Positions 2,649 to 32,748 of a DNA stretch of 64,000 bases are shown here, one piece after another. A model generated the notes under the pieces. The model was not told the DNA's origin. It was given only the letters and a program-made list of their open reading frames with translations, and searched no databases. This DNA comes from Verrucomicrobiota bacterium (GTDB lineage: Bacteria > Verrucomicrobiota > Verrucomicrobiia > Chthoniobacterales > JAFAMB01). How positions within the stretch are numbered: the stretch's first letter is position 1; each line of letters opens with the position of its first letter. The stretch is taken from the NCBI GenBank assembly GCA_019246215.1, contig JAFAQT010000001.1:5225-69224 (forward strand), given 5' to 3'. The position numbers and the translations under genes were made by a program.

Positions 2649-3578
2649 TCATTTTACTCCGGTCGCCAAAAGTGTTTGAAAATACGGGCTATTCAGTTCT
2701 CTCGAAACAATCTGTACGTCGTTTTCTCGAAAGCCGGCCTGTTCCAGCAGATGCACAAGTTCGACCTCGGTGAATCCGAGCCAAAGATCCGCGTATAATT
2801 CTCTTGCCTGCTCGAAGCCATGGGCGAGCAGATCCAGGATCACAAGGCGCCCACCCCCACGCAGGATTCTTCTGGCTGCCGCGATTGCCCTTTGCGGGCT
2901 GTTGGCGTGGTGGAGTGCCTGACTGAATATTGCCAGATCAATTGAATCATCCGATATGGGTGGGTCTTCAAGGTCACCGAGACGGTACTCCAAGTTGGTG
3001 ATCCCTTGATCCTTGGCAAGTTGGGACCCGATTTCGACCATGCGCTCGGAAATATCGAGGGCGATCACATTCCGAGCGCTTTTAGAGAGAATTTGGGAGA
3101 GTGTTCCTTCGCCTGCGCCCAAGTCTGCGACATCAATGGACGGGATCATGGTCAGGAAAAGATGTGCCAGAGCTTGCCAGGATCTTCCAGGGCAGTAACT
3201 GCGTCCAAACTTTCCGGCGAGCCTGTTGAAATACTCGCGGGTGCGGTTCTTTCGCTTGGCGATCACATGCTGAAGGCTGGAGCGATCCAAAGCGGCTTGC
3301 GGCATATCCGCGACGGCCAACCGGATGAGATTTCGCAGTTCAGGTTCCTTAATTGGACCGCTCAGGGACCAGCTGTAATAGATATTTTTCCCGGCCCGCC
3401 GATCCTGGACCAGGCGGCTTCGTTTCAGGTGGGCGAGGTGAGTCGAAATGCGTGATTGGCCCATCCCGAGAATCTCCTGGATCTCTGCTACTGACAATTC
3501 TTCGCTCTGAAGAATATGCATCAAACGGACCCGAGTTGGATCGGATAATGTACGTAGAGAATTCAGCATTGACGTCAT
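2649..3578 (-). CDS. sahR: ArsR-family HTH fused to a SAM/SAH-binding methyltransferase fold; SahR-like regulator of the SAM cycle
   Basis: The N-terminus LSDPTRVRLMHILQSEELSVAEIQEILGMGQSRISTHLAHLKRSRLV is an ArsR winged helix. The C-terminus has a class I methyltransferase motif (VADLGAGEGTLS ... VIALDIS). The gene is divergent from metK-ahcY. Confidence 0.65.
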   Translation of the reverse strand: MTSMLNSLRTLSDPTRVRLMHILQSEELSVAEIQEILGMGQSRISTHLAHLKRSRLVQDRRAGKNIYYSWSLSGPIKEPELRNLIRLAVADMPQAALDRSSLQHVIAKRKNRTREYFNRLAGKFGRSYCPGRSWQALAHLFLTMIPSIDVADLGAGEGTLSQILSKSARNVIALDISERMVEIGSQLAKDQGITNLEYRLGDLEDPPISDDSIDLAIFSQALHHANSPQRAIAAARRILRGGGRLVILDLLAHGFEQARELYADLWLGFTEVELVHLLEQAGFRENDVQIVSRELNSPYFQTLLATGVK

Positions 3579-3685
3579 GGAAATACGGTCGATATATCAG
3601 CGTATCATGATTGGTCAATATCCGCACCTGCCTTCCCAGCTCTCGGTCCACGCTGGATTCTAAACTCACTGTCCTCTCCTCATTT

Positions 3686-4864
3686 ATGGCACGCCGTAAC
3701 ATATTTTCCTCTGAATCTGTGGCCGAAGGGCATCCAGATAAAGTCTGCGATACCATTTCAGATCAAATCTTAGATGCTTGTTTAACTCAGGACTCAAAGA
3801 GCCGCGTAGCCTGCGAAACTCTCGTCAAAGGTAATCTGGTTGTGATCGCGGGTGAAATTACCACCAACGCCCGTTTCGATTATCTCGACGAGGTCCGTTC
3901 GGCTATACGTGAAATCGGTTATGTCTATGAGGATTCCCAGTTTCATGCTGATACCTGCGTAATTGTCCAGGCCCTGAGCCGTCAATCGCGCGACATCGCT
4001 CAAGGCGTCGACGCCAAAGCCGCCGAAGGGAAAGAAACGGACGAACAGGGAGCCGGTGATCAAGGGTTGATGTTTGGCTTTGCGGTTCGCGAGACGCCGG
4101 AATTGATGCCAGCGCCCATCCAATTGAGCCATAGACTTGGCCGGGAGTTGACCCGCCTCCGCAAATCCGGCGAACTGCCTTGGCTTCGTCCCGATGCCAA
4201 GACGCAGGTTTCAATCGAGTACGAAGGGTATCGCCCTATCCGAGTCGATACGGTTGTGATCTCCACGCAGCATGCCGCGGACGTAAAACACAGAGAAATT
4301 CGCGAGACATTGATCGAACGAGTGATCAAAGGAGTGATCCCATTGGATTGGATCGATTCTTCTACCCGATATCTCATTAATCCGACAGGCCGGTTTGTGA
4401 TTGGGGGACCGGAAGGCGACTCCGGACTGACCGGGCGCAAAATTATTGTTGATACCTATGGCGGAATGGGTCGTCACGGTGGCGGCGCGTTTTCAGGTAA
4501 GGATCCATCCAAAGTAGACCGTTCCGCCGCTTACATGGGAAGGTATGTCGCGAAAAACGTGGTCGCCGCTGGACTCGCGGACCGTTGCGAAGTGCAATTC
4601 GCCTATGCAATCGGGTATCCGGATCCGGTCAGCATTTCAGTCAATACGTTTGAGACCTCGACAGTGGACGAAGAAAAAATCGAACAAGCCATCCGGGAAG
4701 TTTTCAATTTCAAACCGGCTGCGATCATCCAGCAGCTTGAACTGCTCCGTCCTATTTATAAGAAGACAACCAATTATGGGCACTTTGGCCGCGAAGACGA
4801 TCTGGAAGCTCTCCGCTGGGAACGGACGGACAAGGCCGATGCACTGAAGCAATTCGTCCCCTGA
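3686..4864 (+). CDS. metK: S-adenosylmethionine synthase
   Basis: [22 protein letters not shown] start, plus [10 protein letters not shown] and [16 protein letters not shown] motifs. The ORF-track start at 3611 is an upstream in-frame extension, so I chose the ATG at 3686. Confidence 0.95.
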
Positions 4865-4916
4865 AACCCCACCCATTGACAGTTCCATTCACCTTACCAT
4901 CTCCGATTCAATTTAC

Positions 4917-6236
4917 ATGAGCACTGTGACCATAACCCGATCCGCAGATTACAAAGTCGCTGACCTCGGACTAGCCGAGTTCGGCAGAAAAGAAATTGAA
5001 ATAGCCGAAACGGAGATGCCTGGATTGATGGCGCTGCGTGCGGAGTTTGGGACCGCGAGACCGCTCGCTGGCGCTCGAATAGCAGGCTGCCTGCATATGA
5101 CAATTCAAACGGCGGTATTGATCGAAACGCTGATTGAATTGGGAGCATCGATTCGCTGGTCGAGCTGTAACATCTTCTCGACCCAGGATCATGCTGCTGC
5201 CGCACTTGCTGCGCAGGGCATTCCGGTATTCGCATGGAAGGGCGAGACACTCGAAGAATACGATTGGTGTATTGAACAGACGGTTTTCTGGCCCGATGGT
5301 CAGCCACTTAATATGATCCTGGACGACGGTGGCGATCTGACCGCGATCGTCCACCAAAAATATCCGCATTTGTTAAAGGGGATCCGCGGGCTTTCCGAAG
5401 AGACAACGACTGGTGTTCACCGCCTCTACCAGATGATGGAACGCGGCGAACTTGGCTGCCCCGCCTTTAATGTCAACGATTCTTGCACAAAATCGAAGTT
5501 CGACAACCTGTACGGCTGTCGTGAATCGCTGTTGGACGGCTTGAAGCGGGCGACGGACGTGATGATTGCCGGCAAAGTCGCTGTTGTTTGCGGGTATGGC
5601 GACGTCGGAAAAGGATGCGCGCAATCGCTGAAAGGACAAGGGGCTCGGGTCATCGTGACCGAGATCGATCCAATCTGCGCTCTTCAGGCAGCAATGGAAG
5701 GATATCAGGTCGCGACCCTTGAAGAGGTCGTTCAGGAAGGGGATATCTTCATCACGGCCACTGGATGCCGGGATATCATCCGGCGTGAACATCTCGACGC
5801 GATGAAGAACCAGGCGATCGTGGCGAATATCGGGCACTTCGATCTCGAAATTGACGTTGCGAGCGTGTTCAATGACAAGAACTTAAAACGCATTAAAATA
5901 AAGCCGCAGGTTGACCAGGCGGAGTGGCCGAATGGGAAACGTGTGACCATCCTCGCCGAAGGTCGCCTGATGAACTTGGGTTGCGCTACCGGGCATCCCT
6001 CTTTCGTTATGAGCGCCTCCTTCACCAACCAAGTCATGGCGCAAGTCGAGTTATTTACCCATCAGGGGATCTACGAAAATAAGGTCTATGTATTACCTAA
6101 GAAGCTTGACGAGAAGGTCGCCCGTCTGCACCTCGCCAAACTAGGAGTAAACTTAACTCAATTAACCGATACGCAGGCGAGTTACCTTGGCATTCCCGTT
6201 GAGGGGCCGTATAAACCGGATTTTTATCGATACTAA
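4917..6236 (+). CDS. ahcY: adenosylhomocysteinase
   Basis: 439 aa with [27 protein letters not shown], the NAD site [10 protein letters not shown], and the C-terminal PDFYRY. Confidence 0.95.
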
Positions 6237-12080: not shown

Positions 12081-12733
12081 AGTTCAAAAACCTGCGTTTG
12101 ATCCAGGAGACAAACCCGAGGTCAGCGGCCGAGAACATGGCTCTCGACGAAACGTTGTTTTTGACCGCGGCATGCTCCGTGTTTAGGTCCTACCGGTGGC
12201 TCCGCCCCTCTGTCTCCTTCGGCTATTTTACCGCCTGGAAAGAGGTCGCTCTACCGTATGCTGGACGAGATCTGGTGCGGCGCTGGACCGGTGGAGGCAT
12301 CGTGCAGCACGGTCAGGATTTTACCTATTCGCTGATTTGTCCCGATAGCGAGAATCCCCCGCGCACGATCGAGTTTTACCGATTTGTCCACCTAGCGATT
12401 GCTAATATTCTGCGCAGGAGCGGGTACCCTGTGGAAATTGCACAATCTACCGAGTCAATCCGGTCTTCGGCCTGTTTCGAAAGATCAGTTCAGTTTGACT
12501 TGAGACTGCGAGGGGAGAAAATTGCCGGAGCTGCGATTCGCCGGAACAGCAAAGGTTTGCTGCTCCAAGGGAGTATTCAGTGTCTTAAGGTTCCGGCACA
12601 GTTTGACGAATTGCTGGCGGCTGCGCTTGCGAGGCAAGTTGACTCGTTTGTCGTCACCAACGTGATAATGGAACAGGCGGCGCGCATGGCGAAAGAAAAG
12701 TACGGTGCTGCAGAATGGAATTGTCGACGTTAG
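12077..12733 (+). CDS. biotin/lipoate A/B protein ligase family protein (LplA/LipM-like catalytic domain only)
   Basis: NMALDETLF, the RRWTGGGIVQHG motif, and LRGEKIAGAAIRR (catalytic Lys context). The start overlaps the MFS stop (ATGA). Confidence 0.65.
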   Translation: MKFKNLRLIQETNPRSAAENMALDETLFLTAACSVFRSYRWLRPSVSFGYFTAWKEVALPYAGRDLVRRWTGGGIVQHGQDFTYSLICPDSENPPRTIEFYRFVHLAIANILRRSGYPVEIAQSTESIRSSACFERSVQFDLRLRGEKIAGAAIRRNSKGLLLQGSIQCLKVPAQFDELLAAALARQVDSFVVTNVIMEQAARMAKEKYGAAEWNCRR

Positions 12734-12744
12734 GATCACCCGTC

Positions 12745-13851
12745 ATGAACGAAGCGTTTCTTTCCAATCGCCTCTTCGAGGGGCTGACGCCGGAGGTGCT
12801 CCGTTCGGTCGAGATCCAGGAGATGGAATATCAACCGGGGGAGCTGATATTCGATGAAGGGACCTCAGGATCCACACTGATGCTCGTGGGGCGGGGTCGG
12901 GTGCAAATTTCTAAAACAGGACGCCAGGGGTTGCAGGAAACCCTAGCGACGATCGAGAAGAACGACTTCTTTGGAGAGTTGGCGGTCATCGACCACGGAC
13001 CGCGGTCTGCGCGAGCGATTGCCTTGGAGCCGACAGTGCTTGGCGAAGTTGACCACAAGACGTTCACTCGGCTGATGAACAGGGCTCCGGACACACTGCC
13101 ATTGACCTTTACACGGGTAGTGGTCCAACGGTTGCGCTATACGAACGCACGGTATATTGAGCAACTTTTACAGAACGAGCGCCTCACACTTCTTGGCAGT
13201 ATGGTCGGTTCGATCGTGCACGATCTTAAGAACCCTATTTCCGCGATCTTGTCTTCTGTTGATTACCTCGAAAAAACGGCACCATCGGATTCTGTGCGGC
13301 AGTTGGCAGAGATTATTCAGTCTTCCGCCCTCGGAATTATCGAGATGAGCGAAGAGTTGCTCGGATTTGCGCGAGGGAAGGTGAACCTAAGACCACGCGT
13401 GACGTCGGTGCGCCGGCTGATGGAGCTCCTGGAGAAGGAGATATTAAACCAGATTCGTAATACGCAGGTGCGGCTTATGCTCCAGGTCATCGACGCCGAT
13501 GACCTCATTTTGGACGAAGCGCGCTTCACGCGCTGTCTCGCCAATATCGTCAAGAATGCAAAAGAAGCTCTGGGGGACCAAGGAACGATTACGATCCGGT
13601 TTCGCGAAGCGGGATCTGAGTTGCGGGTGTCGATTTCGGATAACGGTCCTGGGGTTCCGGAATCGATCCGGAGCAGAATTTTCGAGCCGTTTGTGAGTTA
13701 TGGCAAGAAATATGGAACCGGCCTCGGCATGGCGATCGCGAAATCGACGGTAGATGCCCACGGAGGCCGTATTTGGCTCGAAAGCGAAATGGGAAAAGGC
13801 ACTACCTTCCATGTGGTGCTCCCGAAGCATTTCGATCCGCATCTGCGCTGA
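12745..13851 (+). CDS. cytoplasmic sensor histidine kinase with an N-terminal cyclic-nucleotide-binding domain
   Basis: CNB signature FGELAVIDHGPRSARAIA, H-box HDLKNPISAI, N-box NIVKNAKEA, and G-boxes DNGPGVP / GTGLGMAIAK. No TM segments and no adjacent response regulator. Confidence 0.8.
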   Translation: MNEAFLSNRLFEGLTPEVLRSVEIQEMEYQPGELIFDEGTSGSTLMLVGRGRVQISKTGRQGLQETLATIEKNDFFGELAVIDHGPRSARAIALEPTVLGEVDHKTFTRLMNRAPDTLPLTFTRVVVQRLRYTNARYIEQLLQNERLTLLGSMVGSIVHDLKNPISAILSSVDYLEKTAPSDSVRQLAEIIQSSALGIIEMSEELLGFARGKVNLRPRVTSVRRLMELLEKEILNQIRNTQVRLMLQVIDADDLILDEARFTRCLANIVKNAKEALGDQGTITIRFREAGSELRVSISDNGPGVPESIRSRIFEPFVSYGKKYGTGLGMAIAKSTVDAHGGRIWLESEMGKGTTFHVVLPKHFDPHLR

Positions 13852-13937: not shown

Positions 13938-14213
13938 TTATCCGCCGGCGATGGCAGGTACGATGCTGACCTCGTCACCCGATTTCACTGCGGTCTCGAA
14001 TTCATCCAGAAAGCGGACGTCTTCGTCATTTAAAAAGACATTCACGAATCGCCGAATTTGATCCTGTTCGTCGCAGATGCGCTCTTTCAAGCCGGGGTAG
14101 GTTCGCTCAAGACTCTCAATCAACTCGCGTATTGTGGCGCCTTCAGCTTCAACTACTTCCTGATTCTGGGTTAATTTTCTTAAGGGGGTGGGGATACGAA
14201 CGGGGATAGTCAT
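13938..14213 (-). CDS. MoaD/ThiS-family sulfur-carrier protein (beta-grasp, C-terminal Gly-Gly)
   Basis: 91 aa from the ATG at 14213, ending ...GDEVSIVPAIAGG. The start is separated from the upstream stop by only 4 nt (TAA-CCCT-ATG). Confidence 0.75.
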   Translation of the reverse strand: MTIPVRIPTPLRKLTQNQEVVEAEGATIRELIESLERTYPGLKERICDEQDQIRRFVNVFLNDEDVRFLDEFETAVKSGDEVSIVPAIAGG

Positions 14214-14217
14214 AGGG

Positions 14218-15471
14218 TTAGATTGTCTTGATTGCATGCTCAAAAAGAGTTTCAAATTCTCTAAGGTTCGGACGAATCAGTTTGGCTTGACCGATTTTGT
14301 CAATCACAGCCTCCTGCGTCTTTAGACCGTGTCCGGTAATACACAGGACGATGCTTTCATTTCGAGGGATGCAGCCGCGTTCGATCAGTTTTTGAGCACA
14401 CGCCACGGTGACTCCGCCTGCAGTCTCAGCAAAAATTCCTTCGGTTTCGGCCAGGAGTTTGATTGCGTCTATGATCTCCTCATCTGTGCAATCTTCCGCT
14501 GCGCCGCCAGTTTCTTTCATTGTTCGGATGGCGTAATAACCGTCTGCCGGAGTGCCGATCGACAACGATTTTGCGATCGTGTGAGGTTTGGCAACCGGCT
14601 TAACGATCTCTGTGTTATTTTTGATTGCGGTGGTGACCGGTGAACACCCGACTGCTTGAGCGCCGTAAATGCTAAACTCGCCGGCCTCGACGAGCCCAAG
14701 CTTAGTGAATTCTTGAAATGATTTGTGGATCTTTGTCAACAGAGAGCCGCTGGCCATACAAACTACTGTGTGCCTGGGCAGACGCCATCCGAGTTGTTCG
14801 ATGATCTCGAACCCCATGGTTTTCGAGCCCTCGGCGTAATAAGGCCGAAGGTTTACATTCACGAAGCCCCAGTGATATTTGCCGGCGATTTCGGAACAAA
14901 GGCGGTTAACCTGATCGTAGGCCCCTTGGATGCCAATAACGTTAGTACCGAAAATCAGTGAGCCAAGAATCTTTGTCGGCTCCAGATCCGCCGGTATCAG
15001 CACAAAACTACGAAGCCCCGCGGCGGCGGCATTTGCAGCCACCGAATTCGCCAGGTTGCCGGTGGAGGCGCAGGCAACGGTGTCGATTCGGAGTTCCCTC
15101 GCCCGGCTCAGAGCGACCGAGACGACGCGATCCTTAAATGAAAGCGTAGGGTAATTAACGGTGTCGTTTTTGACGTAAAGCTCTTCGACACCGAGGCGCT
15201 CCGCTAAGCGGCGAGTGCGGATCAAGGGAGTGAATCCGGTGTGGAGACCCACAGTCGGCTCATTTTCAAGCGGGAGGAGTTCCCGATATCGCCACATTGA
15301 TCGTGGGCGTGAAAGGATCTTTTTGCGAGTTAAAGACTTGCCGATCGCGTCGTAGTCGTAGGCGGCTTCCAGGGGGCCGAAATCGAATTCGCAGACGTGA
15401 ACAGGCTCCTTGGCGTAGTGTCGGCCACACTCCCGACATCGAAGATGCGAAAAGAACCGCGGTTTATCCAT
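14218..15471 (-). CDS. threonine-synthase-family PLP enzyme (ThrC homologue with N-terminal Cys-rich ribbon)
   Basis: PTLSFKDR PLP-lysine motif, a CASTGN segment and a GxxxGxS region. The N-terminus carries CRECG...VCEF. 417 aa. It lies directly downstream of a SAM-I riboswitch. Confidence 0.8.
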   Translation of the reverse strand: MDKPRFFSHLRCRECGRHYAKEPVHVCEFDFGPLEAAYDYDAIGKSLTRKKILSRPRSMWRYRELLPLENEPTVGLHTGFTPLIRTRRLAERLGVEELYVKNDTVNYPTLSFKDRVVSVALSRARELRIDTVACASTGNLANSVAANAAAAGLRSFVLIPADLEPTKILGSLIFGTNVIGIQGAYDQVNRLCSEIAGKYHWGFVNVNLRPYYAEGSKTMGFEIIEQLGWRLPRHTVVCMASGSLLTKIHKSFQEFTKLGLVEAGEFSIYGAQAVGCSPVTTAIKNNTEIVKPVAKPHTIAKSLSIGTPADGYYAIRTMKETGGAAEDCTDEEIIDAIKLLAETEGIFAETAGGVTVACAQKLIERGCIPRNESIVLCITGHGLKTQEAVIDKIGQAKLIRPNLREFETLFEHAIKTI

Positions 15472-15535
15472 AAGTTAAGGCGGGCATCTAATTAATTCAT
15501 CCACCAGGAGTCGCGAGAGTTACAAGATCTACGCT

Positions 15536-15656
15536 CCCTCCATCTTTGCCCGAAAATTCTTCGGACCTGGAATTGGCACCTGGTCGTCCCGCTTCCGCGG
15601 AACCGGTTGCCGTGGCATCGCAGGGCCAGTCCCTCCGCCACTCTTGATGGAATGTT
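15536..15656 (-). promoter_or_regulatory. SAM-I (S-box) riboswitch aptamer
   Basis: The minus-strand RNA reads CAUUCCAUCAAGAGUGGCGGAGGGACUGGCCCUGCGAUGCCACGGCAACCGGUUCCGCGGAAGCGGGACGACCAGGUGCCAAUUCCAGGUCCGAAGAAUUUUCGGGCAAAGAUGGAGG. It has the P1 pairing (UCCAUC/GAUGGA), AUCAAGAG, GGAGGGACUGGCCC, CGGCAACC, GGUGCCAAUUCC and AAAGAUG blocks in canonical order, as recalled from the B. subtilis and T. tengcongensis S-boxes. Confidence 0.9.
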
Positions 15657-15661
15657 GGCGA

Positions 15662-15690
15662 ACTTTAGGGGATTGGTTTTGGGAGGTCAA
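15662..15690 (-). promoter_or_regulatory. candidate sigma-70-type promoter for the riboswitch-thrC-like operon
   Basis: The minus strand reads TTGACC (15690..15685), a 17-nt spacer, then TAAAGT (15667..15662). This places a start site a few nt before the P1 helix. Confidence 0.45.
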
Positions 15691-15827: not shown

Positions 15828-16748
15828 ATGCCCGCAAAGTTTCGCGTTAATTCTCCCGGAGGAGAACCTTTCGAACGAGAAGTTAACAATACCGCCACGA
15901 TCGGGCGGACTCCGGACAATACCATTCCACTATCGGGCAACCATGTTTCCCGCCAGCACGCGATAGTGCGTTGTCACAATGGCTTCCAGTATCAGATCAT
16001 GGATCTTGGCAGCCGGAACGGAACGTTCGTCAATGATCAGCGGGTGGTGATGCCGGTCACCCTCGAACCAGGTGCCAGAGTCAGAATCGCGAATTACGAG
16101 CTCGTGTTCGATCAATCTCCCGACGACGAACCCTCTGGGAACGTCGATGCAACGCTTGCGGCAGGGAGTATGGAAGGGCACCAGGCCGTATTGTCCGTCG
16201 CAATACTTGTCTGTGACATCCGCGGTTTCAGTTCGATGGCCGAAAAACTGGGTGAGCGTGAACTCGCCCAAATCATCGGTAATTGGTTTCGCGACATCGG
16301 GAATGCTGTGCAATCTGCCGGTGGGATTATCGACAAATATATTGGTGACGCCTTGCTGGCTTACTGGCCGGCACGAGATGAGGAGGGAACCGAATGCGCA
16401 GTCTGCTTGGACGTGGCGCTGACCATTCTCCAACTTGCGGCCAATCGAGTTTGGCCGGGAACCGAGACTCCGTTTCGCGTCGGGATTGCAGTTCATTTCG
16501 GCCGCGTGACAAGCAGCAATATTGGCCAGGTCGCAATGAGAGATGCCACGATCATTGGCGACACAGTGAACACGGCTTTCCGGCTCGAGGGTGTCATGAA
16601 GGAATTAGACCAGAACCTGGTCCTCTCGCAGGATGTCGTTACAGTCTTGCCCGCCAGATACGATTTGGTGAAATTTGGAGAGTTCCAGCTGAAAGGCAAA
16701 AGCCAGGCAGTCCGTGTTTACGGGCTGCGGGATCTACGGGGGAATTAG
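15828..16748 (+). CDS. FHA domain fused to a class III adenylate/guanylate cyclase domain
   Basis: N-terminal FHA: TIGRTPDNTIPLSGNHVSRQHAIV...DLGSRNGTFVND. C-terminal cyclase: VLVCDIRGFSSMAEKLG, DKYIGDALLAYW, IGDTVNTAFRLE. Confidence 0.85.
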   Translation: MPAKFRVNSPGGEPFEREVNNTATIGRTPDNTIPLSGNHVSRQHAIVRCHNGFQYQIMDLGSRNGTFVNDQRVVMPVTLEPGARVRIANYELVFDQSPDDEPSGNVDATLAAGSMEGHQAVLSVAILVCDIRGFSSMAEKLGERELAQIIGNWFRDIGNAVQSAGGIIDKYIGDALLAYWPARDEEGTECAVCLDVALTILQLAANRVWPGTETPFRVGIAVHFGRVTSSNIGQVAMRDATIIGDTVNTAFRLEGVMKELDQNLVLSQDVVTVLPARYDLVKFGEFQLKGKSQAVRVYGLRDLRGN

Positions 16749-16924: not shown

Positions 16925-19186
16925 TTAGCCACGCTCTCTTTTGCCCAGGAACCAGTAGGAGCAGACAAATCCGCCGATCATCCACAATAAAAGTGATGCG
17001 CAGGCGACCCAAATCGGTCGAGTCTCAGTGTAGAGGGTTCCTGTTTTGAGTCGTTCTCCGGTTCTTGATTTGGTCCAGTCGCTGATGTTGAAATAAGCGA
17101 TAGGATAGTCCCGGGCGAGTGCTCCGGAAATTTTCTGGTTAATCAAAAAACTAACATCCGCGATGCGTTGAGAGGCAAAGCTAGGCATAACCTGGCTTAA
17201 GGTCAGGACAGGTAATGTCATGTCCTTGGCCGGTACTGTGAAACCTGAAAAGAGGATTTGCGGGATGAGCAGCAGCGGAACCAGCATGACCGCCTGCATT
17301 GGAGACCTGGCGTAAGCGGACGTCGTCAAACCGATCCCCGTTGCGGCGAAGGCCAGGAGAATGAGCCCGATGATCTGCCATAGAAAGGCCCCATGAACAC
17401 TGAACCTGCCGACCGCGATCGTCCCGTAGAGCAGGAGAGATTGGAATGCAGTGAGACCGGCCATCCAGATAAACTTGCTGGTCAAATAGCTCCAGCGGCT
17501 TAGCCCGACCAGCCGCTCACGGCGATAGATCGGCAGCTCTTTGATAATTTCCTGTGCCGAGTTGCTGCACCCGAACCAGAGTGTCGCAATATAGGCAAAA
17601 AACTGATCTAACTGCGGATCGGGTGCTGCCCAGGCCACCAAAGCTCCGATAATAATCGGTTGGGCCACCAGAATAATCAAGTTCTTGGAGTCAGCTCTGA
17701 AAATCGCAAGCTGCCGTTGCAAAAGTATCGGGAGCGAGAACGCCCTCCTTTTCTTTGTCAGTGGCGCAGGCGCATCCTGGTCCGGCTCCCCTGGAACCGT
17801 CGGTTCGAAGGGAGGGAGGATTGCTGATTCCATGGACTGAAGCGCGTCGTACAGCAAGGAGAGGCGGGTAACACCGAATCTTGAACGTGCCTGGTCGGGA
17901 GGACCCTGAAATACGACGCGCCCATCAGAAACAATGGCGATCTGGTCCATCAGGTAGACATTTTCCATCACGTGCGTAGTGCAGATCACAGTGCAGCCCG
18001 TATCAGCCAGGCGGCGTAATAGCTCCATCAGTTTGAATTCCGCCAGAGGATCCAGTCCCGAGGTCGGCTCATCCAGAAACAAAAGAGGCGGACGACTCAA
18101 TAGTTCGACTCCCACACTGACCCGCTTCCGCTGCCCACCGGACAAGCGACCGATCTTCAGGTTTACCCGGTCGGCCAATCCGAGACTGACGATGGTGTGA
18201 TCGACCAGTTTCACAATCTCCTGCCGAGGTGTTCCTGCAGGTAATCGCAGACGAGCAGCAAAGGTGAGCGCTTCGGTGACCGTCAGGTCAGAGTGAACTA
18301 TATCGTCTTGGGGGACGTAACCGAATAACGAGCGAAGCTGGCCGAGGTTTTTGTACAGATCGGTCTGATCGAACCGAACCTTTCCGCTTTCAGCAGGTCG
18401 AAGACCGCTCAAAGCGTCCAGAAGCGTGGTTTTCCCGGCGCCGCTTGGTCCAAGTATCCCGATGAACTGACCAGGTTCCGCCACAAAACCTGCACGGTTC
18501 AAGATCGGACCGTTGTCACCTTGGCGAGTAAGCCCGATAGCTAAAATGCGGCCCACGGAAAGGCGCCGGACGCGAACGAGCCGCCTGCCATCGTAAATAA
18601 AGAAAAATGGTCCCAATTGAATCTGGTCGCCGATCACGAGATCGTGTTCGTCGAAACGGCGACCGTTGACGAAGGATCCTGATTTGCTATGAAGATCGAG
18701 TAATCGATATCCTTTCGGCCCGGATTCGATCATTGCATGGCGTCTCGAGACGACAGGATCGCTTAAGACAACATCGACCTCCTCGCTTCGCCCGAAAATG
18801 AGGTCCGACCCGAGAGGGATGTCTGCTGTCGGTGTTCCTTTATACAAAACAGTACCGATGGGATTGACCAACTCCGCTGCACCTGAAGATTCGTCGGTGC
18901 CGACGCCAAAGGCCAAAGTGACTGGACCGACCTGGATCTGATCCCCTGACTTGAGCGCGGTCCGACCCGAGATACGGTTCCCGTTCACCGCGGTTCCGCG
19001 TTGACTGCCGAGGTCCTCAATAAACCACGCTTCACGTTCGAATAGAATCCGGCAGTGACGCCGCGATACTTCCGGATGCCCCAGAATCAGATCGACTTCC
19101 GCAGCCCGGCCAAGGACCACACTTTCACCGCGCAGCAACTCCGAGCGCGGCGGGAGCCCGGCAAGAATGGAGATCGGCATTTCCAA
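16925..19186 (-). CDS. ABC transporter with two N-terminal FHA domains, one NBD and an ABC-2/ABCG-type permease in a single polypeptide
   Basis: FHA1: VVLGRAAEVDLILGHPEVSRRHCRI...GSQRGTAVNG. FHA2: LIFGRSEEVDVVLSDPVVSRRHAMI...HSKSGSFVNG. Walker A GPSGAGKTT, signature LSGGQRKRV, Walker B LLFLDEPTSGLD, and six C-terminal TM helices. Confidence 0.85.
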   Translation of the reverse strand: MEMPISILAGLPPRSELLRGESVVLGRAAEVDLILGHPEVSRRHCRILFEREAWFIEDLGSQRGTAVNGNRISGRTALKSGDQIQVGPVTLAFGVGTDESSGAAELVNPIGTVLYKGTPTADIPLGSDLIFGRSEEVDVVLSDPVVSRRHAMIESGPKGYRLLDLHSKSGSFVNGRRFDEHDLVIGDQIQLGPFFFIYDGRRLVRVRRLSVGRILAIGLTRQGDNGPILNRAGFVAEPGQFIGILGPSGAGKTTLLDALSGLRPAESGKVRFDQTDLYKNLGQLRSLFGYVPQDDIVHSDLTVTEALTFAARLRLPAGTPRQEIVKLVDHTIVSLGLADRVNLKIGRLSGGQRKRVSVGVELLSRPPLLFLDEPTSGLDPLAEFKLMELLRRLADTGCTVICTTHVMENVYLMDQIAIVSDGRVVFQGPPDQARSRFGVTRLSLLYDALQSMESAILPPFEPTVPGEPDQDAPAPLTKKRRAFSLPILLQRQLAIFRADSKNLIILVAQPIIIGALVAWAAPDPQLDQFFAYIATLWFGCSNSAQEIIKELPIYRRERLVGLSRWSYLTSKFIWMAGLTAFQSLLLYGTIAVGRFSVHGAFLWQIIGLILLAFAATGIGLTTSAYARSPMQAVMLVPLLLIPQILFSGFTVPAKDMTLPVLTLSQVMPSFASQRIADVSFLINQKISGALARDYPIAYFNISDWTKSRTGERLKTGTLYTETRPIWVACASLLLWMIGGFVCSYWFLGKRERG

Positions 19187-19315: not shown

Positions 19316-19531
19316 ATGAAAATAATCCTTGTCACTGGAGCAAACCGGGGGATCGGATTGGCGCTCACTAGAGTATTGCTGGCGAGCGGGAAAGTGCTGG
19401 CAATTGCCTTAGGGAAGGCCGTCAGAGGACTACGGCAACGAAGAGCATACTACCGTTGCTGCATTCCTGCCCTGGCGGGGTTCGTATGTCAACGATCCAT
19501 AGCCCCTGACGGTTCTATTTCAATGGACTAG
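19316..19531 (+). pseudogene. N-terminal stub of a short-chain dehydrogenase/reductase (probable relic)
   Basis: MKIILVTGANRGIGLALTRVLLASG is a canonical SDR TGxxxGxG Rossmann start. After about 30 residues the sequence becomes non-SDR-like and stops at 71 aa. Confidence 0.4.
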
Positions 19532-21611: not shown

Positions 21612-24600
21612 TTAGGCCCCTCGCGTCGATTTCGCCGGATAGCTTTCTGCCCTGAGGCTGAGGAGCTTGCAAACAAACGGAGCGGTCCGGCTTCCTTCTT
21701 GCCGGGCAAGCTCTTCGACAGATCCCGCAGCAACAACTTCGCCGCCGCCATCCCCAGCCTCAGGACCAACATCGAGAATATAATCGGCTTCTGCGATGAT
21801 ATCGAGGTTATGCTCGATGAGAATGACCGTGTTCCCGTCATCGACCAAGCGGTGCAGAACCTCTATGAGCAGTTCCACATCCGCCATATGCAAGCCGATT
21901 GTTGGCTCTTCGAGCAGATAAAGCGTGCTCTTTGGCGTGATGTTTCTCCTGAGCCTGTCCGTTAAACCTCGTCCAACGCCAGTCTTCAATTCACTGACAA
22001 TTTTCAGACGTTGTGCTTCGCCTCCACTTAGCGTTGGGCTCGGTTGCCCAAGCTGCAGATAACCAAGCCCGGTTTCAACCAGGAGTTCGAGTGCCTTGTG
22101 AATTCGCGGTTGAGATCTGAAGAATTCTGCGGCTTCTTCGATCGTTAGCTCGAGTAGATCGCCAATACTCTTGCCATTGTACTGGACTGCGAGAGTTTGG
22201 GAATTGAATCGCTTCCCCTGGCAGGCTTCGCAGGGGATATAGCTTGGAGGCAGGAAGTTCATTTCCAATTTGATAACTCCCTGCCCGGTGCAAGTCTCGC
22301 AACGGCCTCCCTCCGTGTTGAAGGAGAAACGGCTCCGGCTGTAACCGCGGATCCGGGATTCCGGAAGCTGAGCAAACAGTGCACGTATATCGTCGAAGAT
22401 CTTAACGTAGGTTGCCGGTATGGAACGAGATGTTTTGCCAATCGGCGATTGATCCACTTCGAATACGGCACCGAGGTGCTCGACGCCTGCGACTTCGTTC
22501 CAGGGATACGTTTCCGATGCCCCTTTCTTTCTTGTTCTTTGCAGATGGGCAGCGACGGCGGGCAACAGAACCGATCGCAAAATCGTGCTTTTTCCCGACC
22601 CGGAGACCCCGGTGATCACCGACAGTCGCCCGATCGGGAAACGGATGTCGATATTTTTGAGATTGTTCGCGTGCGCGCCCCGGATTGCGAGCCAGTCCAC
22701 GCCCTGCAACGGGCGCCACGAACCGCGCACCGGATGAGCAAGCGGGTGGGCTAGATATTTGCCCGTCACAGAATTCTCGCGCTTCACAATTTCTCTTATC
22801 GGGCCCAGGAAAACCAGGTTGCCGCCACTGCGTCCTGCGCCCGGCCCCAGATCGACGATCAAGTCTGAGCGCCTCATAGTTCCTTCATCATGCTCAACCA
22901 CGACCAGAGTATTGCCCTTCATTTTGAGCGCTTCCAAAGTGTCGAGAAGTCTCTCGTTGTCCCGGGGGTGTAATCCAATGGTGGGCTCATCCAAAACATA
23001 TAAAACGCCGCGCAGATTTGAGCCGAGCTGGGCGGCAAGCCGAATTCGTTGGGATTCGCCGCCGCTTAATGTTTTCGCTGGACGATTGAGCGTGAGATAC
23101 TCCAGGCCAACCTGTCGCATGAACAAGAGCCTTTGCTTGATTTCGGCGACGATGTCGGACGCAATCGAACGGTTCACCCCGGAAAATCGAAGATTCTCGA
23201 TCAGCGAGATGGTGTGCTTGATTGCGGTCCCGGTGATTTGGTCAATGGTATAGCCTTGCAACTGCACAGCTAGGGCGGTCGCGTTCAGACGCGCGCCTCG
23301 GCATTCAGGACATTGCTCCACGCTTTCTACGTCGACCGAATCGCTTCGGCGCTCGGCCATCAACTCAGCCGCCAGTCTTGACTCCGCTTTTTCATCGTCG
23401 TCACTGGTGAACGGCAGAATGTAACCATAACCCTTACAAGTTGGGCACCAGCCATGCGGCGAATTGAAGGAGAAAAGGCGCGGATCCAGCTCCTCAAACG
23501 AATCGCCGCAATTCGGACAGGTCATTTCGCTGCTCAACACGAATCGGTTAAACGCGGGAACGGGACTCGCCCCGTTATTGCCCAAGGAGTGATGCGAGGC
23601 GCGGTTCGGTTGAGGTTTTGGTGTCCATAGGAATGCAGAGCCATTCCCAACCTGCAACGCCGTCTTTACCAGTTGGTGCATCTGCTTGTTTTCGGGGTTT
23701 CTCAATTCGGCTATAACGACTTCGATCGTGTGTTCCCGATAGCGCTCCAGACTTGGAAATTCGTCGACCCCGTATCTTTTGCCATCAACGATTAACTCTT
23801 CGTATCCTTCCCGTTTGATCCAGATCGCAACTTCTTTGTGATACCCTTTACGCGCTTTTACGAGCGGCGCAGTCAGTGTCGCGCGCGTTTTCGCGACGAT
23901 ATCCCGGACCTGTCTCAATATTGCCGCCCCGCTTTGCTTGCTTACCGGGATGTTGCACCGAGGGCAATATTGGGTTCCGAGTTTAGCGAAGAGCAGCCGG
24001 AGAAAGTGATAGACCTCCGTCAATGTTGCGACTGTAGATTTCCCCCCTCCCTGGGTAAGTCTTTGCTCGATCGCCACAGTAGGCGGTATGCCCTCAACAT
24101 GATCCACATCGGGGCGTTCTAATTGTTCCACAAACTGCCGCGCGTAGGTCGACATGCTGTCCAAAAAACGGCGTTGACCTTCCGCGAAGAGTATATCAAA
24201 CGCCAAACTCGATTTTCCCGACCCGCTCAAGCCTGTAATAACTACCAATTTCTCATGTGGAAGCTCCAGGGAGAGATTTTTCAGATTGTGATGACGTCCT
24301 CCCTGCACTGTAATAACGGGCTTTAAGATCTTTCTTGGGATCTCAGCGACTCGGGCGCTCAATCGGGGTTCGCGGGTGGCGAGCTTTTCTCGAAGGAAAT
24401 TTCCAGTTTGAGAACGGGGTTGCTTCGCAACTTGCTCCGGAGTTCCTTCAGCAACGATCCTTCCGCCGTTAACGCCTGCTTCGGGGCCTAGATCGATGAT
24501 ATAATCGGCAGACTGGATGATATCCATGTTGTGTTCGATCACGATCAACGTGTCACCCCGATCCACCAGCTGCTGAAATAGCTTTAGAAGAGAGGCAATA

Positions 24601-27218
24601 TCATCAAAGTGTAAACCCGTTGTCGGCTCGTCGAAGATCAGGAGCGCGTGCCGACGGTTTTTCTTACTCTCCGCTAGATGACCGACGAGTTTAAGGCGCT
24701 GCGATTCACCTCCTGAGAGCACATTCACCGGTTGCCCGAGTCTCAAATAGCCGAGTCCGACCTGTTTGAGAAGTTCTAGCGGCTCCGCGAAGGCCTCGCG
24801 CCCTCCGTCGGGCCGAAAGAAAGCGATTGCTTCGGTCACCGTCAGTTCCAAGACATCGTGAATAGACTTGCCGCGCATCTTGATATTAAGCAAATGCGGC
24901 TGGTACCGTTTCCCGCCGCATTCACCGCAACGGATGTATTGATCACTGAGAAATTGCATTTCGACCTTCTCGTAACCAAGGCCGGCGCAACGTTCGCAAC
25001 GGCCGATTCCAGAGTTGAATGAGAACGCAGCGGGAGTCAATCCGGCAGCTCTCGACTCCGGCAGGCCCGCGAAAAGCTCCCTGACATGATCGAACACCCC
25101 TATGTAAAGTGCAGGCGTCGACCTTGGAGACCGCGCCAGGGGCGATTGATCCACGAGTATGATCTCATCGATGTCGTGCACTCCGAGGACTCGGTCGCAG
25201 ATTCCGGGTGTCTCCTCGCTTGAGCCGCCCTTAAGCCGAATCAGATTCTGGTAGAGGACATCCTGGACCAGAGTGCTTTTTCCCGATCCGGAAACACCTG
25301 TTACGCAACAGAGGGTGTGGAGAGGAAATCTGACATCGATATTCTTGAGGTTGTGCTCTCGAGCCCCGAAAATTTCGAGGTATCTTTTCGGCTTCCGTCG
25401 CTGCGCTGGAGGAAGAATCCGTTTTCTCCGCGTCAGATAGGCGGCGGTAAGCGACTCGGGTGCCGCATCACCGATCTCGTCGATCGGACCCTGATAGACC
25501 AGTTCTCCGCCGAGTTCACCGCGACCGGGGCCGATCTCGATCAGGTTATCCGCGCTTCGAATGACAGCCTCTTCGTGCTCGACCACCAGAAGAGTGTTTC
25601 CTTTATCGCGCAAGCCACGCAGCACGCCAATCAAACGATGAACATCTCTCGGGTGAAGTCCGACACTCGGCTCGTCGAGCACAAAAAGAGTGTTAACAAG
25701 AGAGGCGCCGAGGCAAGTGGTCAGATTCACCCTTTGCACTTCACCGCCGGAAAGGGAGCGCGTTGGACGATCCAGCGCTAGATACCCAAGCCCGACATCA
25801 ATCAGATATTCAAGACGGGAAACAATTTGCGATCGGACAACCTCCGTTGCGCTGTCGCTTTCGGCGATGCGCAGTTGCTTCATGAGGCCTGCCAATTTCT
25901 CGACCGAGATCTGCTGCAGATCTGGGAGCGTCAATCGTTGAGTATCAATGACCACCCGAAAATGCAGCGTCTCCGGTTTGAAACGCGACCCCTGGCACTG
26001 CGGACAAAGAGTGTAGGCGCGGTAGCGGCTCAGAAACACCCGGACGTGCATTTTGTAGGCGCGCGATTCCATCCAGTCAAAGAACCCGCGGATTCCGTAC
26101 CATCCGCCGCTCTGCCAAACCTCCTCCGCTGTCAAATCAGGACGAAGATCGCCGTTGATAACCCATTCCTGGTCAGCTTTGGGGAGATCCTCAAAAGCAC
26201 AATGGATATCGATTTGTCGCTCCAAGGCTCGGGAAATCAAATCTTGCTGACACTCGCGCATCTGACCCGTTTGAAAGGGTTTCACGACCCCATCGGCGAT
26301 ACTCAGGCTGCGATTGGGCATGGCGCGGTCGAGGTCAATTCCGATCGTCCGTCCGAAGCCGCGGCAACCCGGACAGGCCCCAAGCGGATTATTAAAAGAA
26401 AATAGACCAGGCGCTGGTGGGCGGATCTCTATATCGCAGTAGGGACAATGCCAGCCAATGGAAAAACGATGCTCTTCGACTGGATTGAGCGCGACGATTT
26501 TCAGCTGCCCTTTTCCGTAGTTTAAGCCCTGCTCAATTGCCTCTACGAGCCGGGAATGGTTGGCCTCGCCCATTGTTAGACGATCCTGAATCACGAAAAC
26601 GAGACCCGGAAGGCGCTTTATGGCAGGCGCAATGTCGGTACGGATCATTTCCTGATTCAGCCAAATCCGAAGGAAGCCTTGCTGATTCAAGAAGGAGAAA
26701 AAATCGCCAGGGTCTGTACCTGGCGGTGCCGGTACTCCGAAGGTTACAAGAACCGCTCGAGGCGATAGTTTATTGAGTAGTGTTGCAGCAATGCTAATTG
26801 GGGTTTCGCGAACAATCTCGCGCTGGCATTCAGGACAGAATGCTCGTGCCACGCGGGGCATTAGGAGTTTCAGATAATCGTTGATCTCGGTCATCGTTCC
26901 CACGGTGGACCGCGTGGTGCGAACACGGTTGGCCTGCTCGATCGCGATGGCCGGCGGAATACCGAGAATTTCGTCCACGAGCGGTTTGTCCATTCGCTCG
27001 AGAAACTGGCGAGTGTAGGGGCTGAATGTTTCGACATATCGACGTTGCCCTTCCGCGTAGATCGTGTCGAAAGCCAGACTCGATTTGCCGCTGCCGCTTG
27101 GACCGGTGATCACGTGGAACTTGTTCAATTCAAGATCGAGGTTGATCCCTTTCAGGTTATTTTGGCGTGCGCCACGAATAATGATCGTATCCCGGGCATG
27201 CTCGACAAAACTGGGCAT
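21612..27218 (-). CDS. tandem-duplicated UvrA-like excinuclease ABC subunit A (UvrA-UvrA fusion, four ABC ATPase modules)
   Basis: 1868 aa. There are four Walker A sites (GPSGSGKSS about aa 39, GVSGSGKST about aa 641, GLSGSGKSS about aa 996, GVSGSGKST about aa 1537) and four LSGGE(V/S/A)QR signatures. Repeated CxxC zinc modules are present. Each half begins like canonical UvrA ([13 protein letters not shown]... / [13 protein letters not shown]...). Confidence 0.9.
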
Positions 27219-28599: not shown

Positions 28600-28673
28600 T
28601 CGGGCTGGTGGGATTCGAACCCACGGCCTCCACGTCCCGAACGTGGCGCTCTACCAAGCTGAGCCACAGCCCG
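28600..28673 (-). tRNA. tRNA-Pro (anticodon CGG)
   Basis: The reverse complement CGGGCTGTGGCTCAGCTTGGTAGAGCGCCACGTTCGGGACGTGGAGGCCGTGGGTTCGAATCCCACCAGCCCGA folds by hand as a cloverleaf with anticodon loop TTCGGGA. CCA is not encoded. Confidence 0.9.
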
Positions 28674-31264: not shown

Positions 31265-31340
<76 letters not shown>

Positions 31341-32675: not shown

Positions 32676-32748
32676 AGGTCAGTAGCTCAATTGGTAGAGC
32701 AGCGGTCTCCAAAACCGCCGGTTGGGGGTTCGAGTCCCTCCTGACCTG
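32676..32748 (+). tRNA. tRNA-Trp (anticodon CCA)
   Basis: AGGTCAGTAGCTCAATTGGTAGAGCAGCGGTCTCCAAAACCGCCGGTTGGGGGTTCGAGTCCCTCCTGACCTG is a 73-nt cloverleaf. It sits in the usual tuf / tRNA-Trp / secE position. Confidence 0.9.

Follow-up and report, generated by a model that had tools for sequence, protein, structure and literature searches.

A predicted metM-metO operon under a SAM-I riboswitch in Verrucomicrobiota

We analysed a 64,000-nucleotide stretch from a Verrucomicrobiota bacterium (Chthoniobacterales; contig JAFAQT010000001.1 of assembly GCA_019246215.1, positions 5,225 to 69,224), referred to here as the window. On its minus strand lies a compact unit composed of a sigma-70-type promoter, a SAM-I riboswitch that would sense S-adenosylmethionine (SAM), a gene for a pyridoxal 5'-phosphate (PLP) enzyme of the threonine synthase (ThrC) family and a gene for a ThiS/MoaD-like sulfur carrier. 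We conclude with high confidence that this unit is a two-gene metM-metO operon that undergoes SAM-dependent repression through the riboswitch. The sequence directly supports the aptamer, the promoter and both genes, together with the orthology of the genes to a Streptomyces operon and an alternative pairing within the leader. The system is known in kind, in that a metM-metO operon under a SAM-I riboswitch has been published, and is found here in a different phylum. Its elements, in the order of transcription, are the following.

15662..15690, minus strand: sigma-70-type promoter, with -35 box TTGACC at 15690..15685, a 17-nt spacer and -10 box TAAAGT at 15667..15662 (pattern scan)
15537..15653, minus strand: SAM-I (S-box) aptamer, a four-way junction P1-P4 (RF00162, minimum free energy fold, covariation)
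15507..15537, minus strand: hairpin H1 (GGAGCG...CGCGACUCC), predicted with the closed aptamer and occupying the first half of the anti-aptamer strand
15499..15515, minus strand: anti-aptamer strand CGCGACUCCUGGUGGAU, which can pair with aptamer nucleotides 2-17 (15652..15637) in the P1 5' strand, J1/2 and the first part of P2
15479..15505, minus strand: hairpin H2, pairing GGUGG (15505..15501) with CCGCC (15483..15479) and ending 8 nt before the AUG; the proposed sequestering helix of the OFF state
14218..15471, minus strand: metM-type gene for a 417-aa ThrC-family PLP enzyme with an N-terminal Cys-rich ribbon (HMM matches, 54% identity to a Streptomyces orthologue, tree, motif)
13938..14213, minus strand: metO-type gene for a 91-aa ThiS/MoaD/CysO-type sulfur carrier (PF02597, GG-stop, 4 nt after the metM stop)

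The aptamer, which a sequence-only reading of this DNA had placed on the minus strand, is a strong match to Rfam RF00162. Its 83.9 bits exceed the gathering score of 44.4 (E 2.4e-18); the match spans the full model (positions 1-108) and is the single riboswitch detected by Rfam cmscan in the window. A covariance model built from the aptamers of 20 relatives, and used on related loci as well as on the window, likewise finds one SAM-I aptamer only. Folded alone, the 117-nt aptamer adopts the canonical four-way junction P1-P4 as its minimum free energy (MFE) structure, at -51.4 kcal/mol. In the alignment of the 20 related aptamers 98.8% of cells are paired and both sides have changed in 13 of 36 pairs, values equalled by none of 500 shuffles. 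SAM binding and repression of expression by the aptamer are thus far predictions from sequence. SAM-I riboswitches turn off genes for methionine, cysteine and SAM biosynthesis, not threonine genes.

The aptamer occupies the leader between the promoter and the metM-type gene. The TTGACC-17-TAAAGT promoter that the sequence-only reading had put directly ahead of it is present at 15690..15662, and transcription is predicted to begin close to the first nucleotide of the aptamer. The promoter pattern is a 9/12 match and would be weak evidence if taken alone; its position, however, is kept in relatives. In most distinct relatives the distance from the TTGAC box to the aptamer is fixed at 34-38 nt, and a few that fall outside the search pattern still have CTTGAC at the same promoter spot. 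An A-rich tract upstream of the promoter usually precedes the TTGAC box in relatives, too. The coordinates of the sequence-only reading proved correct within 1-3 nt.

The same reading had assigned the 417-aa protein to the threonine synthase family on account of its PLP lysine and N-terminal Cys ribbon, and profile searches agree: the protein matches Pfam PALP with 226 bits (PLP fold-type-II/threonine synthase family) and the thrC equivalog TIGR00260, carries the lysine motif LSFKDR and begins with a CxxC...C zinc-ribbon-like stretch. Its scores stay under the cut-offs of NF006050 (291.4 vs 303) and of the cysM model (39 vs 394 bits). A NinF Pfam match on the N-terminal ribbon (23.9 bits, below the cut-off of 27.5) is a short cysteine-motif match and was dropped. 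Solved ThrC structures align to residues 55-393 only, with at most 183 bits. The orthologue from S. griseoincarnatus, which is itself linked to a riboswitch and to metO, is 54% identical over 405 aa, ribbon included.

The motif FVNVNLRPYYAEGSKT is identical in the window enzyme and the Streptomyces orthologues. At its position, the ThrC-like representatives and Thermus thermophilus ThrC have NPxRxEGxKT (VNPHRLEGQKT in the latter), a segment that the window enzyme, reading NLRPYYAEGSKT, does not share. In T. thermophilus ThrC, the Arg of NPxRxEGxKT makes contact with the phosphate of the substrate. The window enzyme has a Tyr aligned with this Arg, and a different Arg is found three residues upstream of that Tyr. 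A second difference is GNL in MetM-type proteins in place of the GN[TA] of ThrC. A neighbour-joining tree rooted on T. thermophilus ThrC, in which MetM is represented by orthologues, points the same way on the phylogenetic question raised by the sequence-only reading: the window enzyme and its relatives sit with the riboswitch-linked actinobacterial clade, apart from ThrC-like representatives that are 35-40% identical. For comparison, B. subtilis ThrC is only ~33% identical to MetM (bioRxiv 10.64898/2026.09.15.751699). On these sequence relationships the window enzyme is orthologous to Streptomyces metM products rather than to canonical ThrC, and it is predicted to be an O-phosphohomoserine-dependent homocysteine synthase. 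There is no canonical second thrC within the 64-kb window.

The second gene follows closely, with the enzyme stop TAA at 14220..14218 and the carrier ATG at 14213; the resulting gap of 4 nt suggests co-translation. Its 91-aa product, noted earlier as a beta-grasp protein ending AIAGG, matches Pfam ThiS (PF02597) with 69.6 bits and does end AIAGG-stop. The closest solved relatives are the ThiS/MoaD-family protein 4N6E_B (81 bits) and Mycobacterium tuberculosis CysO 3DWG_C (75.6 bits). Publicly, the carrier is named 'molybdopterin synthase subunit' or 'SAMP1'. MoaD proper was rejected as its identity (TIGR01682, 25.6 bits vs a cut-off of 66.15; no MoaE in the window), and so was ThiS proper (thiS equivalog, 17 bits vs 37).

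In the window's lineage, each of the 81 complete carrier genes ends GG-stop, so that C-terminal trimming before activation would not be needed in the verrucomicrobial carriers. GGC-stop ends six Streptomyces/Kitasatospora carriers (L149, L152, L153, L154, L165 and one further actinobacterial locus), other Streptomyces carriers having GG-stop. The GGC-stop carriers fit the remark of the GapMind authors that Mec is required for MetO maturation (10.1101/2024.10.14.618325). As the sequence-only reading had observed, no gene for an E1 activating enzyme (ThiF/MoeB) or a JAMM protease is nearby. A search of all open reading frames (ORFs) in the 64-kb window, down to the small ones lying between genes, found no ThiF/MoeB, JAMM or MoaE domain. 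E1 and JAMM genes are equally absent among the Pfam-checked neighbours of one Streptomyces locus (L161) and one Micromonospora locus.

More than 150 loci overall conserve the triad of aptamer, ThrC-like gene and MoaD-like gene. A metagenome scan returned 80 loci with enzymes 72-100% identical to the window's. A SAM-I aptamer, located with the covariance model, is directly upstream in every one of them with enough 5' flank, and a MetO-like gene (59-100% identical) comes directly after the enzyme gene in every one with enough downstream flank. An identical 13.8-kb contig is present in GCA_019244735.1, and identical or near-identical contigs occur in soil metagenomes. A relative with 88% enzyme identity sits on the 3.0-Mb contig ERZ25039522:contig_14780. 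The named close homologues are from metagenome-assembled genomes of Verrucomicrobiota/Chthoniobacterales.

The connection to Streptomyces was drawn through P0248, a Micromonosporaceae protein 51% identical to the window enzyme, which came from the diverse full-length relatives in a representative library. An alignment headed by P0248 was scanned against one genome per species and returned 80 loci, all from Actinomycetota, including 11 Streptomyces and 3 Kitasatospora species. In 78 of these 80 loci a SAM-I aptamer lies directly upstream of the MetM-like gene, and Rfam RF00162 confirmed it in seven, at 72-84 bits. In Streptomyces, Kitasatospora, Streptosporangium, Nocardioides, Kribbella and others a MetO-like gene is directly 3' of the enzyme gene, and these carriers are 45-53% identical to the window's. 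Micromonospora, Actinoplanes, Asanoa, Jatrophihabitans, Blastococcus, Modestobacter and others (L087-L120, L125, L130, L140) have the riboswitch and a MetM-like gene with an LRPYYAEGSKT-type motif, 50-57% identical at the protein level to the window's enzyme. No MetO-like ORF was found within 8 kb in this group, a profile hidden Markov model included in the search; either its carrier is encoded elsewhere or it uses another sulfur donor.

We take the Streptomyces-group genes to be metM-metO orthologues because they have the arrangement reported for Streptomyces albulus; our link to S. albulus MetM runs through these orthologues of other Streptomyces species. The metM-metO operon of S. albulus was reportedly discovered through its SAM riboswitch (Hasebe, Adachi, Maruyama, Hamano, 2024, Appl Environ Microbiol 90:e01247-24; cited by both PMC12172450 and 10.1101/2024.10.14.618325). 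A SAM riboswitch lies upstream of S. albulus metM, and homologues of metM also occur in cyanobacteria (PMC12172450). MetM and MetO convert O-phosphohomoserine to homocysteine in a pathway that needs MoeZ and Mec and that GapMind already includes, with the steps MetO, Mec, MoeZ and MetM (10.1101/2024.10.14.618325). The Streptomyces precedent that the sequence-only reading named is correct. Its main proposal, a MetM/MetO-type thiocarboxylate route from O-phosphohomoserine under SAM control, gains sequence-based support from the orthology, the order of the triad and the motif. Our literature search for SAM riboswitch, threonine synthase and MoaD together yielded no earlier report, and a broader S-box search yielded nothing relevant.

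How the riboswitch might act on expression is suggested by the 65 nt between aptamer and AUG. A scan for intrinsic terminators on the minus strand, from the aptamer to the metM start, found none, in line with the earlier impression that the platform has no obvious U-tract. The leader also lacks a Shine-Dalgarno sequence, as do most genes of the window (tuf, rplJ and a few others have one). What it does contain is a strand able to invade the aptamer. The anti-aptamer strand can form a 15-bp helix with the aptamer's 5' side, with a dG of -19.6 kcal/mol and a z-score of -4.7 relative to platform sequences shuffled by dinucleotide. Of 48 related leaders, 39 give a z below -2 (median -5.5), and in 36 leaders dG ranges from about -15 to -24.5 and z from about -4.2 to -7.9. 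In the 27 closest leaders 98% of the cells of this helix are paired, compared with 39-54% for slid controls; the aptamer side is invariant in these leaders, and the helix shows no two-sided changes among them. Lineage changes are compensated: where the aptamer has AUCGAGAG and not AUCAAGAG, the downstream strand reads CUCUCG or CCUCGAU and not CUCUUG. The existence of an alternative helix that competes with the aptamer is well supported at the sequence level.

Hairpins H1 and H2, both predictions from modelling, together form the platform MFE structure in most relatives, and 80% of their cells are paired, compared with 41-60% for slid controls, but their covariation does not rise above shuffles. 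Changes in H2 are one-sided only (U-G/U-A and G-C/G-U). Its 3' strand stays 0-10 nt before the AUG in most close relatives. The MFE structure of the window leader also allows the P1 3' strand AAAGAUG (15541..15547) to pair with CAUCUUC (15441..15447) in codons 9-11; this pairing is probably chance, because it is not kept in relatives with different N-terminal codons.

The expression platform seems to differ between lineages. In a distant verrucomicrobial group with enzymes 72-74% identical to the window's (L055, L060, L061, L063, L066, L067, L069, L084), the aptamer is followed immediately, as judged by eye, by a GC-rich hairpin (e.g. GGGUGCCU...AGGCAUC) and a short U run, although the L055 hairpin failed the terminator scan. 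Leaders of this group also have a short CCUCGAUAAGC near the AUG that is complementary to the P1 5' strand. In Actinomycetota leaders the anti-aptamer helix is absent (median z 0.4).

Taken together, these features suggest the following scheme, in which the chemistry is argued by homology and, like the E1 and JAMM partners and the OFF mechanism, is inferred. The operon would be transcribed from the conserved sigma-70 promoter and turned off by SAM through the riboswitch. MetO, CysO-like and with a Gly-Gly end, would be adenylated and then converted to a C-terminal thiocarboxylate by a MoeZ/MoeB-type E1 encoded elsewhere. MetM would form a PLP-bound vinylglycine-type intermediate from O-phosphohomoserine and add the thiocarboxylate sulfur in place of water. 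Homocysteine could arise directly or be freed from a MetO-homocysteine adduct by a Mec-type JAMM hydrolase, also encoded elsewhere. When SAM is absent, the strand 15515..15499 would pair with the 5' half of the aptamer and leave the start region open (ON). When SAM is present, P1 would close and the freed strand fold into H1 and H2, bringing a helix close to the AUG and lowering initiation at a leader that relies on being unstructured, possibly with Rho-dependent polarity in addition. On this modelled OFF mechanism, in which the SAM-released strand closes H1/H2 and initiation drops, our judgement is evenly balanced.

Several observations weigh against parts of this interpretation, and they bear on three competing explanations. 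The 417-aa protein could be an ordinary threonine synthase, perhaps the organism's only one, with the riboswitch tuning the flow of O-phosphohomoserine between threonine and methionine and with the carrier an unrelated MoaD/ThiS-family protein. The enzyme passes the thrC equivalog TIGR00260 well above its cut-off (274.8 vs 167.1 bits), which explains the public annotation: every database source that names the gene in these bacteria calls it 'threonine synthase'. Its catalytic lysine motif is intact, and the homologue from the cyanobacterium M. aeruginosa showed threonine-related activities and did not act as a full MetM in vivo (PMC12172450). Because of the TIGR00260 match and this cyanobacterial case, the window enzyme may have threonine synthase activity, alone or in addition. 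In plants, SAM activates threonine synthase. Repression of threonine synthesis by SAM would therefore have the opposite sign to the plant precedent, and ThrC genes are not known to be controlled by SAM riboswitches. In more than 120 loci from two phyla, moreover, the carrier gene is coupled to that of the enzyme, and the carrier scores below the moaD and thiS equivalog cut-offs, while the enzyme clusters with Streptomyces metM orthologues and has in common with them the substitution in the NPxRxEG region. MetM is, according to the GapMind authors, often misannotated as ThrC (10.1101/2024.10.14.618325). We thus consider an ordinary threonine synthase very unlikely. An enzyme that uses free sulfide, or sulfide as well as the carrier, with MetO either not required or working chiefly for a different pathway, is a little less improbable but still unlikely. 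It would suit the whole actinobacterial group that has the riboswitch and a MetM-like gene with no MetO-like ORF within 8 kb, and it would suit the lack of both E1 and JAMM genes within 64 kb. The missing local partners are no counter-argument to the thiocarboxylate route, however, because the checked Streptomyces locus L161 likewise lacks them nearby and because MoeZ and Mec are steps of their own in GapMind. The carrier gene invariably sits immediately 3' of the enzyme gene in the window's lineage and invariably terminates in GG-stop, and the short intergenic gap again points to coupled synthesis of the two proteins.

The level at which the riboswitch acts is harder to judge. Control of transcription, through Rho or a non-canonical terminator, in place of control of translation initiation is a possibility that we rate as somewhat doubtful, though well ahead of the two explanations just discussed. 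There is no Shine-Dalgarno sequence to sequester, and the predicted unpaired probability of positions -15..+5 shifts only modestly, from 0.64 in the free to 0.47 in the bound state. The released strand is C-rich (CUCUCGCGACUCC), like Rho loading sites, and the hairpin and U run seen by eye in L055-like relatives would fit a terminator. Initiation control by the H1/H2 switch is favoured, on the other side, by the negative terminator scans of the window leader and of L055 and by the preserved placement of the H2 3' strand just before the AUG in most close relatives.

Elsewhere in the window, 8-12 kb from the operon, we observed a methionine-cycle cluster (2649..6236) whose synteny is kept in relative L005.

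2649..3578, minus strand: SahR-like fusion of an ArsR-type helix-turn-helix (HTH) domain and a SAM-methyltransferase, divergent from metK/ahcY
3611..4864, plus strand: metK, SAM synthetase (392 aa according to gene callers; the true start is probably later)
4917..6236, plus strand: ahcY, S-adenosylhomocysteine (SAH) hydrolase

The combination of ArsR-HTH and SAM-methyltransferase domains is the architecture of the SAH-sensing regulator SahR (PMC4239095). On this reading, a SAM riboswitch would control homocysteine synthesis, and a protein that senses SAH would possibly control the SAM cycle.

The immediate neighbours of the operon are of a different kind. Divergent from the riboswitch promoter is a gene for a protein with an FHA domain and an adenylate/guanylate cyclase domain (15828..16748, plus strand), which is adjoined by one for an ABC-2 transporter to which two FHA domains are fused (16925..19186, minus strand). 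A cyclic nucleotide-binding histidine kinase is encoded on the other side of the operon (12715..13851, plus strand), and this neighbourhood is kept in relative L005. Farther away, an ORF at 21612..27218 (minus strand) encodes an 1868-aa protein with two UvrA interaction domains and several ABC ATPase modules, about twice the normal length of UvrA. The remaining features that we recorded are listed here.

19417..19511, minus strand: small signal recognition particle RNA, RF00169 (57.5 bits)
28600..28673, minus strand; 31265..31337, plus strand; 32676..32748, plus strand: three tRNAs
31.4-44.6 kb: tuf-secE-nusG-rplKAJL-rpoBC cluster
53.3-57.5 kb: fur-sufCBD cluster

Our findings extend the MetM/MetO route, reported from Streptomyces in 2024, to abundant soil and freshwater Verrucomicrobiota, with more than 80 metagenomic loci. 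Their value lies in the correction of annotations and in metabolic models of soil Verrucomicrobiota: with current gene names, metabolic reconstructions of these uncultured bacteria would wrongly show methionine synthesis as incomplete and would include a second thrC that is spurious. The difference between LRPYYAEGSKT and NPxRxEGxKT is a simple signature that could separate MetM from ThrC. The orthologous operons also show how, in nature, one riboswitch aptamer has been combined with two distinct expression platforms. Only tentatively would we go on to a joint claim, which we find rather improbable in full. It holds that Verrucomicrobia poor in Shine-Dalgarno sequences have a platform undescribed for S-box leaders, in which a 15-bp helix invades the P1 5' strand, J1/2 and P2, whereas competition in S-box leaders is usually for the P1 3' strand, with neither a terminator nor a Shine-Dalgarno sequence, and that MetM/MetO is at the same time the sole route to homocysteine. 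If the route were indeed the only one, O-phosphohomoserine would be the branch point between threonine and methionine, as it is in plants.

A comparison with characterized systems places the operon closest to metM-metO of S. albulus, with which it has in common the order of SAM-I riboswitch, ThrC-like PLP enzyme and MoaD/CysO-like carrier. It resembles the Streptomyces orthologues in its enzyme (54% identical, with LRPYYAEGSKT unchanged), in its carrier (45-53%) and in having no E1 or JAMM gene adjacent. It differs from the S. albulus system in its host, a member of the Verrucomicrobiota and not of the Actinomycetota, and from the six GGC-stop carriers of Streptomyces and Kitasatospora in the constant GG-stop of its lineage. 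The expression platforms are unrelated. Actinobacterial leaders have the AUG ~17-20 nt past the aptamer, behind a GAAAGG-like box and with no anti-aptamer helix, whereas the window's leader puts 65 nt between aptamer and AUG, lacks a Shine-Dalgarno sequence and can form an alternative helix of 15 bp.

ThrC itself (T. thermophilus 1UIM, B. subtilis 6CGQ) is like the window enzyme in fold, PLP lysine motif and, presumably, O-phosphohomoserine as substrate. It lacks the 55-residue N-terminal Cys-rich extension and has NPxRxEGxKT and GN[TA] where MetM-type proteins have LRPYYAEGSKT and GNL.

Two further systems parallel the proposed chemistry. The CysO-CysM-Mec-MoeZ pathway of M. tuberculosis includes one of the carrier's nearest solved relatives (CysO 3DWG_C, alongside 4N6E_B) and follows the same logic of an O-phospho amino acid, a protein thiocarboxylate and a fold-type-II PLP enzyme. 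The window enzyme, in contrast, is a paralogue of ThrC and not of CysM/CysK, its substrate would be O-phosphohomoserine and not O-phosphoserine, and its operon has no mec. The HcyS-MetY-HcyD-HcyF system of Wolinella succinogenes, reportedly described by Krishnamoorthy and Begley, is said to use a protein thiocarboxylate as the sulfur donor for homocysteine, as we propose here. Wolinella, however, employs an O-acetylhomoserine sulfhydrylase (fold type I) with clustered E1 and JAMM genes, whereas the window has a ThrC-family enzyme (fold type II) and no partner genes nearby.

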